Source: Promethearchaeia archaeon (lineage in GTDB: Archaea > Asgardarchaeota > Lokiarchaeia > Sigyniarchaeales > SOKP01). Taken from it: 64,000 nt of DNA. Location: assembly GCA_029856045.1 (NCBI GenBank), contig JAHQWG010000035.1:1-64000 (forward strand). Direction: 5' to 3'. Numbering within the stretch: the first letter of the stretch is position 1; every line of letters begins with the position of its first letter. A model generated the notes under the pieces. It saw only the letters and a program-made list of their open reading frames with translations. It was not told the origin of the DNA and ran no database searches. A program made the translations under genes and the position numbers. Shown piece after piece: positions 54,345-61,396 of the stretch.

Positions 54345-55838
54345 ATGAGTAATACGTCTTTCTCGGAGAAAATTGATTTTGAGAGACTTTTTTTCCCAAG
54401 AGCTGTTGGGATTGTAGGGGCATCACAAAACCCAGCAGGTGGAGGTTATTTTGTAAGAATTTTATTGGGACGATTTCGAGGTTCTATTTATTTGTTTAAT
54501 CCTCGATTAAAAGGGCAAAAATTGTTCGGTATAAAAGTATATGGCTCAATTTTGGAAATTCCTAAATCAGAACCTATTGATTACGTAATTCTTGCAGTTC
54601 CGGCTCGATTATGTCCTAAATTACTAGAAGAAGTTGGCAGAAAAGGAGTTCCATTTGTTACAATATTTTCATCAGGCTTTTCAGAAGTTGGAGACAGAGA
54701 TCTTGAGAAAAATGTATTGGATATCGCAAAAAAATACAAAATAAGAATCCTAGGACCAAATTGTTTGGGAGTATATAATCCAAGCAGCAATCTCTATATT
54801 AACGCTGTGCAATCAAAAAAAGCAGGAAATTTTTCAGCGATTTTTCAATCAGGTGGTCTTTCAGTAAATGTTAGTAATCTTGCTGTTTCCTATGGTTGTT
54901 TCATATCAAAATTAATTTCCCTAGGTAATGCAATAGACTTAACTTATCCAGATTTTTTAGATTATTTTTTAACTGATCCTAAAACAGCAATTATTGGATT
55001 GTATCTTGAAAATCTTAAATCTCAAAAGATTGGTCGTAGATTCTTAAATAGTGTTAAAAATTTAAATTTAAATAGGAAGCCTGTGATATTATGGAAAGTT
55101 GGTTATGGTGAAGCAACAAAAAAAGCAATCATGTCTCACACCGGTGGATTAGCGGGTAATAGTAAAATATTTAAAGCAGTTGCAAAACAAACTGGTTGTA
55201 GTTTAGTAAGTAGTTCAAAAGAACTTGCAGCATTGGCATCCGGATTTAAATTATTAAATTTACCTAAAACTCGTGATCTTGGCGTAATCGGAATAGGTGG
55301 TGGTTCTTGTATCGAATTAGTTGATATATTAGAAAAATTTAATCTTAGAATTCCACAATTAACTCAAAAAACTACAGCAAAGTTAGGGAGATTTCTTCCA
55401 GATGTAAATACGAATCTTACCAATCCAATAGATCTTGGGGCAATGGGAATAATGCCAAATATTTACTATCGAACAATAGTTTCACTCGATAAAGACCCAA
55501 ATATTTCAGCAATTATTTTTGTAAAAGATCCTGAGCGGTTTGGAGGTTTTGAAGAACAAGTTATGGAAGAACATGGTAAACTTGATAAAATCGATTTAAA
55601 TAAAGTTTTCTTAAAGTATATGAGAAAAGTAAGAAAAGTTTGCGAAAAGCCTATAATTTGTATTATGTTAAAAATAAATGAAGGTTTTAATGAATATAAG
55701 AGCAGATATAGATTTAAATTAAGTCTTTTAAATCGGGCTATTCCTGTTTATGAATCAATAGAATTAGCGGGGAAAGTATTAAATTATCTGAATACTTATA
55801 GGGAATTCCTTCAAAATCACAATAGATTTCCAAGGTAA
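54345..55838 (+). CDS. Acyl-CoA synthetase (NDP-forming) alpha-subunit-like CoA-binding protein
   Basis: VGAS, GFSE, LGPNCLG, QSGG, SHTG (phospho-His), NPIDL. Confidence 0.88.
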   Translation: MSNTSFSEKIDFERLFFPRAVGIVGASQNPAGGGYFVRILLGRFRGSIYLFNPRLKGQKLFGIKVYGSILEIPKSEPIDYVILAVPARLCPKLLEEVGRKGVPFVTIFSSGFSEVGDRDLEKNVLDIAKKYKIRILGPNCLGVYNPSSNLYINAVQSKKAGNFSAIFQSGGLSVNVSNLAVSYGCFISKLISLGNAIDLTYPDFLDYFLTDPKTAIIGLYLENLKSQKIGRRFLNSVKNLNLNRKPVILWKVGYGEATKKAIMSHTGGLAGNSKIFKAVAKQTGCSLVSSSKELAALASGFKLLNLPKTRDLGVIGIGGGSCIELVDILEKFNLRIPQLTQKTTAKLGRFLPDVNTNLTNPIDLGAMGIMPNIYYRTIVSLDKDPNISAIIFVKDPERFGGFEEQVMEEHGKLDKIDLNKVFLKYMRKVRKVCEKPIICIMLKINEGFNEYKSRYRFKLSLLNRAIPVYESIELAGKVLNYLNTYREFLQNHNRFPR

Positions 55839-55910
55839 ATTAATACAGTCTCTATGTTTAAAAAGAAAATTAAAAATAAAAAAGTTAAATTAATAATTAT
55901 TTAGATTATT

Positions 55911-56780
55911 TTAACCAATCTTTTCTAAAATATCGCTTACTCTAGTTCTATGAAACTTAGTTCCCAACTCATCTGCAGGAATGCCCATTCCAAGAGCGAT
56001 TAATTCAGAAATGTAAAATATTGGGATTTTAAATTCCTCCTCGAATTTCTTAGATAAATCTCTCTGTTTTCCATCAAATTGTTGAAAACATGCAGGACAA
56101 TTGACAACCAAGCAATCAGCTCCTGCTTTTTTCACGGCATCCATCTTTTTCTTCAAGATTGCCATGCCATGATCCTCATACGCATTTGAAACTGATGAGC
56201 CACAACATAATGTTTCTTCTCCATAATCAACTACTGTTGCCCCACAAGCAGCAACAATCTCTTTAAGATCTATTGGATGCATAGGATCGTCAGTTTCCAT
56301 AACCTCAGAAGGACGCATATAGTGACAACCAGGATGACATGCGACTTTTAAACCTGATAATGGTTTCACTGTGGAATTTTTAATCTTTTCTAATTCACCT
56401 TTAAGCACACTAACAAAATGCTTTACATCAATAGTTCCTTTATATTCCTTCCCGATTTTTGATAATTCTTTATTAATTTTGTCCTTTTTCAGATTATCAT
56501 GTTTTAATGTATGATTAACTAGTTTTAATGTATTTGAACAGCCATTACAAAGAGAGATAATATCTTTTCCTTCAGATTCGGCTAATGCCAAATTACGAGC
56601 ACCTATTGCTAACCATCCATCATTATCAAAATTTGCAAAACCGGTTGGGTCAGGACAACACGAGAACGGAGCCTGAGAAGTTGCTATACCTAATTTATCA
56701 AAAATTTTTCTACAAGATGCTTCTATAAAAGGAATCCTATTGCCAATCAAACAACCTTCAAACATTTTATACTCTGCCAT
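55911..56780 (-). CDS. hdrB: Heterodisulfide reductase subunit B
   Basis: GC, SCCP, CNGC, HPGCH, LCCG, CPAC (CCG domains). Confidence 0.95.
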   Translation of the reverse strand: MAEYKMFEGCLIGNRIPFIEASCRKIFDKLGIATSQAPFSCCPDPTGFANFDNDGWLAIGARNLALAESEGKDIISLCNGCSNTLKLVNHTLKHDNLKKDKINKELSKIGKEYKGTIDVKHFVSVLKGELEKIKNSTVKPLSGLKVACHPGCHYMRPSEVMETDDPMHPIDLKEIVAACGATVVDYGEETLCCGSSVSNAYEDHGMAILKKKMDAVKKAGADCLVVNCPACFQQFDGKQRDLSKKFEEEFKIPIFYISELIALGMGIPADELGTKFHRTRVSDILEKIG

Positions 56781-56786
56781 TTTTCT

Positions 56787-57293
56787 CTACTCTCCTTTCA
56801 ATTTCTTATCAATTCCCATATTCTTCAATAATGTAGAAAGTTCATTTACATCAGGTGCAGCAACCGCTGGTAAACCAAGTTGTTCACGTCGTCTTTCTAT
56901 AGCAGGTTGAGATGGAATTGCTTTAGCATTTTCAAAAATTGTCTTTGCTTGGAGATAATAAAAATCTGGCGCATCTCCATTAGCAACGCTATGATTCTTT
57001 AATAATTTGAAAATCTCGGTTAATTCGATATTCTGTGGGCATACTTCATCGCATGTATCACAAATTGTACAACCCCATATGGCAATTTTTTCTGCTGAAA
57101 ATATTGCATCTTTAAAGCCAAGCAATGCATTTAAAATATTTTGTCTTGGATTGTATGCATTATCAGTAACTTCGGCAACGGGGCAATTATCAGTGCATCG
57201 ATTGCATTGATAACAATATTTGATCACACCACTCATATGCATATCAAGAACTTGCTTTCTAAATTCAAAATCTGTTGCCATTTTTTCACACAC
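56787..57293 (-). CDS. hdrC: Heterodisulfide reductase subunit C
   Basis: CYQCNRCTDNCP and CTICDTCDEVCP; likely start is MATDF near 57281. Confidence 0.95.
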   Translation of the reverse strand: MCEKMATDFEFRKQVLDMHMSGVIKYCYQCNRCTDNCPVAEVTDNAYNPRQNILNALLGFKDAIFSAEKIAIWGCTICDTCDEVCPQNIELTEIFKLLKNHSVANGDAPDFYYLQAKTIFENAKAIPSQPAIERRREQLGLPAVAAPDVNELSTLLKNMGIDKKLKGE

Positions 57294-57327
57294 GTTTTTT
57301 TATTTTTTTCCTGTTTTTTTATTTTTA

Positions 57328-57397
57328 TTGGTTTTAACCCATGCAAGGGCAGTTATATCTAATCTATTTTTTTTATTAGATATTCATCCTAAACCAA
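57328..57397 (-). promoter_or_regulatory. Candidate SECIS-like hairpin overlapping the vhuU stop codon
   Basis: mRNA reads AUGA-AUAUCUAAU-[AAAAAAAAUAG]-AUUAGAUAU-AA, a perfect 9-bp stem with an A-rich loop; outer UUGGUUU/AAACCAA pairing. Confidence 0.55.
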
Positions 57398-57533
57398 CAT
57401 TTAATTCACGTGAGTAAATTTCTTTACCGTCCTCATTCACTACGGTGATGTGGGCGGCACACGATAGTCAACAATCATAACATCGGACTATCATTTCTAA
57501 GAGATTTACCACTCCTTCAGGAATATCTTCCAT
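57384..57533 (-). CDS. vhuU: Selenoprotein VhuU, the small C-terminal subunit of the split [NiFeSe] hydrogenase
   Basis: MEDIPEGVVNLLEMIVRCYDC-U-LSCAAHITVVNEDGKEIYSRELNVGLG*; in-frame TGA at 57468-57470 lies at the first Cys of the DPCxxCxxH motif. Confidence 0.92.
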
Positions 57534-57595
57534 ATTTTTTTTCACTTTTCTCCATTTATTTTAATTATTTAGAGTAAAAAGATCCTCAATTATTT

Positions 57596-58903
57596 TTATT
57601 TTATCCAAGGGTCTGGCAATTTTAATCCCTCCAATGCATTATCCTCAAATATCTGCTTAGCTACATGCATCAACGACTTCTCAATGCCAGCAATATTATG
57701 ATTTGTTGCGACTAACAGATTCAATTTCTTACAAATCCCATCTGCATCAGACCATATATGATATAACAACAATCCTCGAGGCGCTTCTGTAATTGCAATT
57801 CCTTCTGCTTCTCTTGGTTCAATATCTAATGTTTTACAATCCGGGTTGCATATGTCAGAATCACCAAGTAAACTCCCAACTATTTCTATTGCCTCTACTG
57901 TTTCAATTAATCGAGCCCAATGATATGCAAACGTATGATGAATAAGATCAGTTCCAATTTTAGCTCTCATAGCTTTTAATGCCTCATCCGCTAGTGGAGT
58001 AGCCATTTTATCAACACAATTAATCCTTGCTAAACAATTAGCACGATATATTCCATCTGGATAACCAGCGGGCTTATAATACATATGAGTTGCATATGAA
58101 TGAGCTGGAACATGTTCTCCTAAGGCATCTAAATAGTTATGAACATCATAATCTATTTTTTTACCTTCTAAATCAACTATACGAATATCTCCTTCGTAAA
58201 TATCATGAACTCCATTATTTGTCATCCCAAGATAATAAGTTGGAACGACCCCGACATTTGCTATTACATCCCAATAATCTTCTACTACTTTTAATCCAAT
58301 CTCTACAGTCTTTTTTGTAAATTCAACTTGTTCTGGAATTTGTTTAAGAAACTTTTGTCGAACATCCTCATCCATCGGTTTTTTCATACCTCCGACGATT
58401 GCTGAAATAGGATGTACAGATTTTCCACCAATCTCGGCACATAATTTCTGTCCGAAATCCATCATCTTTAAAGCCATTGCCCCAACATCAGGCATCTTAT
58501 TAATGACATAAACTATATTTCTTAATGCTGGATCTGCAAATGGACCAACTAAAAAGTCAGGTGCAGCTAATGCATAGAAATGCAATAAATGCGAGGAATA
58601 TTGTTTTGCATTTATCAATAATTTTCTCAATTTTAATGCTGGTGTTGGAATTTGAACATTCCATGCATCCTCAACAGCCTTAGTTGGAGTTAAATGATGA
58701 GGTATTGGACAAATACCACAAATTCTAGTAGTTATTCTGGGTACATGCTCACAATATCGCCCTTCACAAAACTTTTCAAAAAATCTAGTTGATGTGACAT
58801 TAAATTGAGCATCTTTAACTTTTCCATCATCTCCAATAACGATCCTGAGTCCTCCGTGTCCCTCAAGCCGAGTTATTGGTTCTACTATTATTTCTTTTAC
58901 CAT
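57596..58903 (-). CDS. vhuA: F420-non-reducing [NiFe(Se)] hydrogenase large subunit lacking the C-terminal L2 motif
   Basis: PITRLEGHG, RICGICP, EAPRG, VATNHN; ends ...PDPWIK with no DPCxxC. Confidence 0.93.
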   Translation of the reverse strand: MVKEIIVEPITRLEGHGGLRIVIGDDGKVKDAQFNVTSTRFFEKFCEGRYCEHVPRITTRICGICPIPHHLTPTKAVEDAWNVQIPTPALKLRKLLINAKQYSSHLLHFYALAAPDFLVGPFADPALRNIVYVINKMPDVGAMALKMMDFGQKLCAEIGGKSVHPISAIVGGMKKPMDEDVRQKFLKQIPEQVEFTKKTVEIGLKVVEDYWDVIANVGVVPTYYLGMTNNGVHDIYEGDIRIVDLEGKKIDYDVHNYLDALGEHVPAHSYATHMYYKPAGYPDGIYRANCLARINCVDKMATPLADEALKAMRAKIGTDLIHHTFAYHWARLIETVEAIEIVGSLLGDSDICNPDCKTLDIEPREAEGIAITEAPRGLLLYHIWSDADGICKKLNLLVATNHNIAGIEKSLMHVAKQIFEDNALEGLKLPDPWIK

Positions 58904-58906
58904 TTA

Positions 58907-60223
58907 TTATTCACCTAAATTAAAATCTCGATTTGATGCTAATGTAAATTTATTAAATGTTCCGATTGGGTCCTTTACTTGTATAAAAAATTCTTCCTTA
59001 CTTAATTCTACATTGAAACTCTCTTTAATAGTTTTATAAAATCTTGTAGCTTGATCAATTACCCATTCTGTTTGTCCATAGCATCCTGTGCAAGGTGCAT
59101 TTACTTTGATACATAAACCTCCACAACCAGCTTTAGTTATTGGACCAACACATATATAACCTTGCTCTATAAAGCAATCTTCTTGATTTGGAATCCCCTC
59201 ATAATCTCTTTTTACTTTTGTCATTGTTCCTTTTCCTATTATTCTAGGACATGTTTGACAAACATTTGAGATCTCATGGAATTCGGGATGCATTGCTAAG
59301 AATCCGAGTAAATTCGTTGCGATTTCAGTGGTAATTGAAGGAATAGTTGCTAATGGTGTATCTGGTTTTCCTCTTTTTTTAATTTGCATCATAATATCAC
59401 CTGAGAGGTCAAATCCAGCCATTAATGGTACATTTAAGAATAAGGATAAAAACTCGAATAAATTCTTTTTATTACCAGAGCTGATATAATCAAGAGATTT
59501 TGTCATATCTAGTAGTTTTTGCGCTTTATCTGAAGCGTTTTTTGCTGGACCCATACATCCAACGCAAGGATCACCTTTATTTGTACATTTTAAAGAACAG
59601 CCTATACTAGTAACTGGTCCATAACATAAGACTCCATTATCCAATAAACAACCACTCTCTTTTAATACACAATCCTCACAAAAGGACTTCTCATTCATTG
59701 GAAAACCTTTTTGTCCTAATAAGAATTGAACAACTCCAACTATTTGCTCTGTTCTTGGTGGACAACCTGCAAGAAATGCATCTACTTTGATAACATCATC
59801 AACATTTACGACTTTATCTTCAAAACCAGGAACGTGTTGATCAGGAATTCGTTTAGTAGTTGCTGACTCAACCTCCATAAATTTTCTCATTTGAACTTCA
59901 TCTATGGGCCATTGGTTTGCCAATCCAGGAACATTACCATAACAAGCACAACTTCCAAAAGCAATAATTATTTTTGATTTTTTTCTTATCAATTTTGTGT
60001 TTGCCAAATCTTCTTTGGTCCTTATCATTCCTTCAATAAAGCCAACAACAATTTCTTCATCTTCTCTCGCAACTAAGGAATCATGTTTAAAATCTACAAC
60101 AGCAGGCCAATATACAATATCTAATGCTGGGAGTACTTGAAGTAAACCTAGATGTGCGTTTAATAGGCTCTGGTGACAACCCCAGCACGAACTTAATTGC
60201 ATAAAAGCTACTTTTACTGTCAT
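58907..60223 (-). CDS. vhuG: F420-non-reducing hydrogenase small subunit with a duplicated FeS C-terminal domain
   Basis: CWGC, GSCACYG, GCPP, then two C-x-x-C...CxGP...GC...C...PC-x-GC modules. Confidence 0.9.
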   Translation of the reverse strand: MTVKVAFMQLSSCWGCHQSLLNAHLGLLQVLPALDIVYWPAVVDFKHDSLVAREDEEIVVGFIEGMIRTKEDLANTKLIRKKSKIIIAFGSCACYGNVPGLANQWPIDEVQMRKFMEVESATTKRIPDQHVPGFEDKVVNVDDVIKVDAFLAGCPPRTEQIVGVVQFLLGQKGFPMNEKSFCEDCVLKESGCLLDNGVLCYGPVTSIGCSLKCTNKGDPCVGCMGPAKNASDKAQKLLDMTKSLDYISSGNKKNLFEFLSLFLNVPLMAGFDLSGDIMMQIKKRGKPDTPLATIPSITTEIATNLLGFLAMHPEFHEISNVCQTCPRIIGKGTMTKVKRDYEGIPNQEDCFIEQGYICVGPITKAGCGGLCIKVNAPCTGCYGQTEWVIDQATRFYKTIKESFNVELSKEEFFIQVKDPIGTFNKFTLASNRDFNLGE

Positions 60224-60427
60224 TTTTCATCTACTTTTTATATATAGTTTAATTTTATTTTTAATTGTAGATGATTTTATCTATATATAATCTAATATAA
60301 GATTCACGATTATATTGTATTTATGTATATATATTCATAACTTTATTTTAGATATTTAATAAATTCGATTAATAATCTTTAATCTTTAGATTAAATCTTG
60401 TGAAAAGAAGAGGATTTATTTTGAAAA

Positions 60428-61396
60428 TTATAAATTTAATAGAACTATTTTTGCTAAAAGAGCATTTAATTGAATAATTTCAGTTCCTCCCTGGCTTAGT
60501 CTATATTCAATTTCCGCTAAAATCTTTATAATTTCTATCTTCTGCTCTTCAGATATTTTTAAGTTATAGACTTCTCGGTGCATTTGTCTAATCAGATTAC
60601 TTCCAGATAATCCATATTCTCTAATTAATTTATCTAAAGTTAATTTTGAAAGTTGCAATTCCCCTTTTATTGAATAATTTAATATTTTTTTAATTTCTTC
60701 AGAGGGTACTTCTCCAGCTATTCTTAATATGATATCTTCATTAATATCATCAGATAAAGTGCTGCTTGATTGCAGGTAATTTATAGCCCTTCTTAAATCG
60801 CCTATACTTACTTTTATAAGCGCGTTTAAACCGCTTTCGTCAATTTTAATATTTTCTTTAACTACAATAGATTTTAATCTTTCCTTGATATCATTATCAG
60901 ACAATTTTGAAAATCTAAATACAACTGCTCTTGATTGGATAGGGAGGATTATTTTATTTGAGTAATTACAAATCAGAATCATTCGACAATTTCTTGTATA
61001 TTTCTCCATAGTTCTTCTCAATGCCTGTTGAGCTGGTGCAGTCATATTATCCGCTTCATCTAGAATTAGAATTTTAAAAGGGATGTCTAGTGGAGGTTTA
61101 GCTTTCGCAAAATCCTTAATTATTGTTCTAATTACATTAATACCTCTTTCATCACTTGCGTTCAGCTCTAAAAATGTAATATTAGGAGTCATTTTTCTGC
61201 CATATATTTCTCTAACCATTACTAAAGCACATGTAGTTTTACCCGTTCCGGCAGGTCCAGCAAATATTAAATGTGGCATTGCCTTATCTTTAATGAATTG
61301 TTTAAGACGTGAAATGATTTCTGATTGATTTACAACATCGGCCAATTTCATAGGTCTATATTGTTCCACCCAAGGTTTTCGTAATTTTTCAGTCAT
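60428..61396 (-). CDS. rfcS: Replication factor C small subunit
   Basis: PWVEQYRP, GPAGTGKT, ELNASDERG, DEAD, QSR, GDLR. Confidence 0.97.
   Translation of the reverse strand: MTEKLRKPWVEQYRPMKLADVVNQSEIISRLKQFIKDKAMPHLIFAGPAGTGKTTCALVMVREIYGRKMTPNITFLELNASDERGINVIRTIIKDFAKAKPPLDIPFKILILDEADNMTAPAQQALRRTMEKYTRNCRMILICNYSNKIILPIQSRAVVFRFSKLSDNDIKERLKSIVVKENIKIDESGLNALIKVSIGDLRRAINYLQSSSTLSDDINEDIILRIAGEVPSEEIKKILNYSIKGELQLSKLTLDKLIREYGLSGSNLIRQMHREVYNLKISEEQKIEIIKILAEIEYRLSQGGTEIIQLNALLAKIVLLNL

Follow-up and report, generated by a model that had tools for sequence, protein, structure and literature searches.

A vhuU gene with an in-frame UGA and an adjacent cysteine codon probably completes a split group 3c [NiFeSe] hydrogenase in a Lokiarchaeial genome

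The window, i.e. the whole stretch of 64,000 nucleotides that was analysed, corresponds to contig C35 of a 3.34-Mb genome of 29% G+C. On its minus strand a cluster of hydrogenase and hdr-like genes was found, within which the small gene vhuU lies between the large subunit gene and hdrC:

58907-60223, minus strand: vhuG-like gene of the small subunit (438 aa, longer than usual), Pfam Oxidored_q6 at residues 13-165
57596-58903, minus strand: vhuA, large subunit (435 aa), N-terminal nickel ligands in R-I-C-G-I-C
57384-57533, minus strand: vhuU, predicted selenoprotein gene of 49 codons, the TGA stop being included in the span
57468-57470, minus strand: UGA, codon 22 of vhuU, predicted Sec codon, aligned with the first Cys of D-P-C-x-x-C-x-x-H, the terminal nickel ligand
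57450-57476, minus strand: L2 nickel-ligand motif D-C-U-L-S-C-A-A-H, with Cys where Pro is usual
57387-57449, minus strand: tail of 21 residues past His28 (codons 29-49), presumably removed by a maturation protease
56787-57293, minus strand: hdrC-like gene directly 3' of vhuU (TIGR03290, E 1e-24, below cut-off; Fer4 families)
55911-56780, minus strand: hdrB-like gene (TIGR03288, E 8e-82, below cut-off; CCG domains)

The vhuU reading frame begins 62 nt past the vhuA stop, with an ATG at 57533-57531, and closes with a TGA at 57386-57384. It encodes M-E-D-I-P-E-G-V-V-N-L-L-E-M-I-V-R-C-Y-D-C-[TGA]-L-S-C-A-A-H followed by the tail, Asp20 being located at 57476-57474, Cys21 (TGT) at 57473-57471 and His28 at 57452-57450; residues 18-25 contain four Cys/Sec. 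A C-terminal CxxC..H pair was not found in the 435-aa large subunit. An initial annotation had placed a 49-aa frame with RCYDC-UGA-LSCAAH, UGA as codon 22 and a 21-aa tail in front of hdrC, which proved exact to the base, and its description of four Cys/Sec within eight residues and of a large subunit that carries RICGIC but lacks the C-terminal pair agrees with the genes found here. In the small subunit, the best stretch of the VhuG model spans only residues 3-234, and a second Cys-rich block resembles the first; it would represent a duplicated Fe-S module.

VhuA was aligned over residues 4-419 of its 435 residues to residues 3-417 of the 418-aa VhuA chain in the structure of a split methanogen hydrogenase (9sfi_g, 374 bits), and it also aligned with residues 4-416 of the 473 residues of an unsplit MvhA (5odc_F). 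The VhuU peptide matched the C-terminus of this MvhA (5odc_F residues 421-451, E 8e-6) as well as the 27-residue VhuU chain 9sfi_M. In these alignments the TGA of codon 22 stands opposite Cys in 5odc_F, 7t2r_D and 9sw2_F and opposite X (Sec) in 9sfi_M. VhuA and VhuU jointly cover MvhA, and the split point is the same as in the Vhu structure 9sfi, so that the earlier proposal that VhuU completes a split hydrogenase, which was to be checked against the C-termini of VhuU and MvhA, was borne out with the TGA on the first Cys of the motif. Assignment to group 3c follows from the best matches of VhuA to Mvh/Vhu, its R-x-C-G-x-C-x-x-x-H motif and the linked hdrC and hdrB downstream.

The top NCBIfam matches were VhuA NF041785 for the large subunit (423 bits, below the cut-off of 800), VhuU NF041786 for the peptide (E 2e-14; 53.1 bits against a cut-off of 70) and VhuG NF045875 for the small subunit (239 bits, below the cut-off of 450). 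These thresholds appear to be set for relatives at the level of the methanogens, and an equivalog cut-off is a threshold and no biological feature; if the cut-offs suit close methanogen relatives, scores below them are expected for distant Asgard orthologs. Pfam yielded no family match in the VhuU peptide, and Rfam at permissive thresholds yielded no SECIS element in 55000-61000. Both misses reflect the limits of the libraries and are no argument against vhuU.

At the 3' end of vhuU a lokiSECIS-type element of the Asgard type I eSECIS-like class was found, which is supported by its fold (z-score -3.0 against shuffled sequences), by covariation and by its match to published features:

57326-57399, minus strand: lokiSECIS-type element, full extent
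57399-57391 paired with 57334-57326, minus strand: outer helix
57387-57384, minus strand: AUGA, the UGA of which is the vhuU stop
57383-57375 paired with 57363-57355, minus strand: perfect 9-bp stem
57374-57364, minus strand: A-rich loop of 11 nt
57354-57353, minus strand: AA following the stem
57350-57337, minus strand: small, G+C-rich side hairpin

The element reads AUGA, stem AUAUCUAAU, loop AAAAAAAAUAG, stem AUUAGAUAU, AA. Among 34 Lokiarchaeial sequences, compensatory double changes were observed at all 8 predicted stem pairs, and the three-helix layout with main stem and outer helix was regained in 55 of 71 single-sequence folds of distinct Asgard vhuU 3' regions. The distance from the Sec UGA to the AUGA was 83 nt at every locus that uses the UGA within the AUGA as its stop. 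As described in the available text of PMC4989117, the lokiSECIS consists of a 9-bp stem preceded by AUGA, with an apical loop of 11 nt that starts A-rich and has G at its last position; the stem is followed by GA (AA in VhuU), the element is sited near the end of the coding sequence, and in VhuU.1 of Lokiarchaeota the AUGA at the same time provides the UGA stop. All features given there, including the VhuU-specific AA and the overlap with the stop codon, are present here.

The outer helix, in which compensatory changes are visible, arises by pairing of the five terminal vhuU codons with a segment located 55 nt downstream, and it encloses the SECIS stem and the side hairpin. The available text of the published accounts (PMC4989117, PMC11227280) gives only base preferences for the lower stem, without a side hairpin or an outer helix. 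A hairpin just past the Sec codon (57405-57475, minus strand) was also considered as a recoding signal and was rejected, as it gave a z-score of -0.39 and 63 of 200 shuffled sequences folded as well.

The components for Sec synthesis and insertion were found on other contigs of the same genome:

C1, 2268-2356: tRNA-Sec with anticodon TCA (61 bits, cut-off 47)
C1, 885-2183: SepSecS, adjoining tRNA-Sec (483 bits)
C1, 5689-6582: EFSec/SelB (268 bits)
C44: SelD with one in-frame TGA (185 bits)
C20: PSTK-like gene (147 bits, below the cut-off of 290)

The genes for SepSecS, tRNA-Sec and EFSec/SelB lie within approximately 6 kb of each other (G000:C1:885-6582). The search for this machinery, which the initial annotation had put forward as a check, thus recovered tRNA-Sec, SepSecS, EFSec/SelB and SelD, with PSTK represented by a match below its cut-off.

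When the VhuU peptide was used as query, the small frame was matched in 56 of 61 related genomes, nearly always as a short frame containing a single TGA. Across the phylum, matches were obtained in 147 of 201 genomes, and the strong ones were frames of 50-60 aa with one TGA. The relatives named include Promethearchaeota (Lokiarchaeota), Thorarchaeota, Atabeyarchaeia, Helarchaeota and Ca. Lokiarchaeum ossiferum; the last of these, which has been cultured, has a vhuU with D-C-U (L046/L168). The homologs retain L-S-C-A-A-H and the tail past the TGA, and of 129 distinct Asgard genes 122 have 21 residues after the His. No random stops or frameshifts past the TGA were seen in the relatives, the sole exception being a TAA six codons past His28 in one locus (L038, G014:C49), where the SECIS element is still placed 83 nt from the Sec codon; this TAA fits a dispensable, cleaved tail or an assembly error. 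The alternation of UGA and Cys that had been suggested as a check in Asgard orthologs was found in two loci with Cys at the Sec position, one of them split (L050) and one fused (L201). The latter (G053:C211:3550-3666) is a natural unsplit open frame of 536 aa with D-C-C-L-S-C-A-A-H, so that a Cys before the ligand also exists in a fused, selenium-free enzyme.

Taken together, the Sec machinery, the covarying SECIS element, the alternation of Sec and Cys and the conservation of the frame past the TGA support codon 22 as a Sec codon, as was initially proposed. Decoding of the UGA without Sec-tRNA, either by a genome-wide reassignment to Trp or Gly or by near-cognate read-through as Cys or Trp, is very improbable. 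Some pipelines have translated relatives with TGA as Trp (P0002, P0003, P0012), but TGA closes 112 of the 847 open frames of at least 400 codons in the genome (13%) as well as vhuU itself, demonstrating that the genome has not reassigned it; in addition, the long Sec-machinery genes SepSecS and EFSec/SelB contain no internal TGA, and the residue in the homologs is Cys, in line with a Sec/Cys pattern at a metal-ligand position unsuited to Trp or Gly. A nonsense mutation or a sequencing error as the origin of the TGA, in the decayed 3' end of a once unsplit mvhA, is hardly conceivable: table-11 gene calling does halt at the TGA and fragments of this kind occur in the protein library, but a TGA stands at this codon in about 125 distinct genes from different Asgard classes, the frame behind it is conserved as amino acids, a covarying SECIS element follows and the Sec machinery is complete (with PSTK matched below cut-off). 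The initial annotation had named a lack of Sec machinery and of conservation past the TGA as the findings that would speak for such an error, and both are contradicted. Conservation, Cys homologs, SECIS covariation and the 83-nt spacing make nonsense mutation, sequencing error and alternative decoding untenable. The gene is thus, with high probability on sequence grounds, the vhuU of a Lokiarchaeial (Promethearchaeota) group 3c [NiFeSe] hydrogenase, the large subunit of which consists of two parts, VhuA (435 aa) and VhuU (a 49-aa precursor).

The motif around the predicted Sec was compared among relatives. In 129 distinct Asgard vhuU genes, D-C-U was found 122 times, D-P-U and D-F-U twice each, D-N-U once and D-C-C twice. 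A Cys therefore precedes the Sec or Cys ligand in 124 of 129 genes, encoded by TGC in 99 and by TGT in 25, and the use of both codons indicates that the amino acid itself is conserved. These genes belong to at least six families spread over several Asgard classes. The motif loci had been collected through similarity searches with a D-C-U query or through patterns allowing C, P or N at this position; the sampling bias is expected to be small, since one residue adds little to match scores. In contrast, D-P-C was found in 135 of 140 motif-bearing hydrogenases among the best 150 representatives of a library of 1.8 billion proteins, all solved relatives have Pro before the ligand (D-P-X in 9sfi_M), and 17 of 19 unsplit Cys-type hydrogenases examined from Asgard genomes have D-P-C. 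As the unsplit Asgard enzymes keep D-P-C, D-C-U is a signature of the VhuU clade and not a peculiarity of this gene, and Pro is not a defining feature of the Asgard branch. The motif had initially been called atypical, with Cys replacing the usual Pro. The replacement is evident against D-P-C and D-P-Sec of the relatives, and atypical is apt in comparison with other hydrogenases but does not hold within Asgard VhuU, where D-C-U is the rule.

What the Cys does is a separate question from the identity of vhuU. On balance, it is probable that the exchange of Pro for Cys is a neutral or purely structural marker of the lineage without a redox or ligand role. In some Lokiarchaeia the position can be taken by P, N or F, and a few other hydrogenases have L, N or Q there; the Cys also persists in Cys-type forms and is hence not tied to Sec; and VhuA has no invariant extra Cys that might serve as a partner. 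The presence of Cys in 124 of 129 genes, in both codons, in at least six families and several Asgard classes, while other hydrogenases keep Pro, argues against neutrality and points to selection for Cys itself. Among 65 distinct Asgard VhuA sequences no conserved partner for Cys21 was found, the only invariant Cys being the two nickel ligands. Two candidates in VhuA were rejected: Cys46/Cys51 near L1 vary freely (L/V/C and M/A/C, respectively) and are uncoupled from the VhuU motif, and Cys155 (82%) also occurs in D-P-U lineages and is missing from 12 D-C-U ones.

A functional role of the Cys beside Sec in a variant [NiFeSe] site is unlikely. It might, for instance, shield selenium on oxidation by a reversible selenenylsulfide, or act as an alternative nickel ligand in maturation. 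In the Gly-Cys-Sec-Gly sequence of mammalian thioredoxin reductase, adjacent Cys and Sec form a reversible selenenylsulfide. This general analogy is confined to the adjacent Cys-Sec, as the fold is unrelated and the pair of thioredoxin reductase is a C-terminal redox centre, whereas the Sec in VhuU is a putative metal ligand. If Cys21 were functional, the Asgard enzyme would represent a distinct active-site subclass. A literature search found no discussion of hydrogenases with D-C-U or with a Cys-Sec pair, although the supplementary alignments of the 2016 paper may show the motif; the searched text on Lokiarchaeota and Asgard VhuU (PMC4989117, PMC11227280) does not mention the Cys before Sec.

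For expression and maturation of the split enzyme, the following sequence of events is proposed. The vhuG-vhuA-vhuU-hdrC-hdrB operon would be transcribed into a single mRNA, on which EFSec/aSelB would bring Sec-tRNA(Sec) to the UGA of codon 22, directed by the eukaryote-like lokiSECIS that starts 83 nt downstream. The AUGA of the SECIS core holds vhuU's own UGA stop, which would terminate translation because it is too near the SECIS for recoding. The precursor would then join VhuA, with Sec22 as terminal and Cys25 as bridging ligand of the Ni-Fe site, together with Cys62 and Cys65 of VhuA. After metal insertion, a protease of the HycI type may remove the 21 residues past His28, leaving a subunit of 28 residues. 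Cleavage at this site is suggested by methanogen VhuU, by the general maturation of [NiFe] hydrogenases, by the conserved tail and by a gene for a HycI-family maturation protease in the genome (G000:C14:9860-10135). VhuU of Methanococcus voltae was reportedly found by Sorgenfrei et al. in 1993 to be processed at the equivalent His position. The mature enzyme would partner with HdrBC, encoded downstream, and with HdrA/VhuD; the latter two are absent from the vhuU operon and would be encoded elsewhere in the genome.

VhuU of Methanococcales (NF041786; 9sfi chain M with VhuA chain g) resembles the Asgard gene in that the large subunit is cut at the same place and Sec takes the place of the first Cys in the C-terminal motif, with x-S-C-A-A-H behind it. 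The tail found here resembles those of methanogen VhuU (P0012), with a similar composition after the His, and of unsplit MvhA-type proteins. The two differ in the residues before Sec (R-A-Y-D-P-Sec in the methanogen, R-C-Y-D-C-Sec here) and in the recoding signal, which is an archaeal SECIS of the GAA_A type in the methanogen gene and of the eukaryote-like kink-turn type here. The unsplit Cys-type MvhA of Mvh-Hdr complexes (5odc_F, 9sw2_F) is the same group 3c large subunit and has a tail past the His as well, but it is a single polypeptide in which Cys takes the place of Sec and the motif reads D-P-C, not D-C-U.

Within the phylum, the system is already known. A VhuU selenoprotein gene of Lokiarchaeota and its SECIS element, including the overlap with the stop codon, were published in 2016 (Mariotti et al., 2016; PMC4989117), a survey of Asgard selenoproteomes lists FrhA/MvhA/VhuU (Huang et al., 2024; PMC11227280), and the feature in the Asgard phylum is covered by a review (PMC13188914). 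Judged by the available text of PMC4989117, the VhuU.1 peptide of Lokiarchaeota likewise has a length of about 50 aa, a single Sec, the same SECIS layout and VhuA and VhuG alongside, and nothing substantive differs; the gene described here is another member in another metagenome-assembled genome. The analysis adds no new kind of system. It supports the use of Sec and a complete Vhu-type hydrogenase for this genome, which matters for annotating the hydrogen metabolism of Asgard archaea. The clade-wide Cys-Sec pair, so far a sequence signature only, would be of note to hydrogenase chemists if it changed oxygen sensitivity or maturation.

Because of its one UGA predicted to be read as Sec, gene finders mis-call vhuU. 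In the protein library, fragments ending at the Sec codon (P0053, P0101, P0143) were found alongside versions with TGA as Trp that run on through the SECIS element (P0002, P0003). The expectation that standard gene callers would miss the gene was thus right in that it is mis-handled, although what they produce are truncated or read-through forms. One Asgard-type vhuU with D-C-U was found on a 2.7-kb contig binned as a Bacteroidales metagenome-assembled genome (L164, SLSH01000336.1), which is probably a mis-binned Asgard contig. Finally, 11 FlpD/VhuD homologs were detected in the Lokiarchaeial genome, four of which carry two in-frame TGAs each (G000 C44:56775-57143, C46:84961-85329, C15:27149-27514 and C32:28886-29254). 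By their sequences, these four would be the two-Sec VhuD selenoproteins expected in Lokiarchaeia, and they fit the published HdrA-VhuD selenoprotein pairs.
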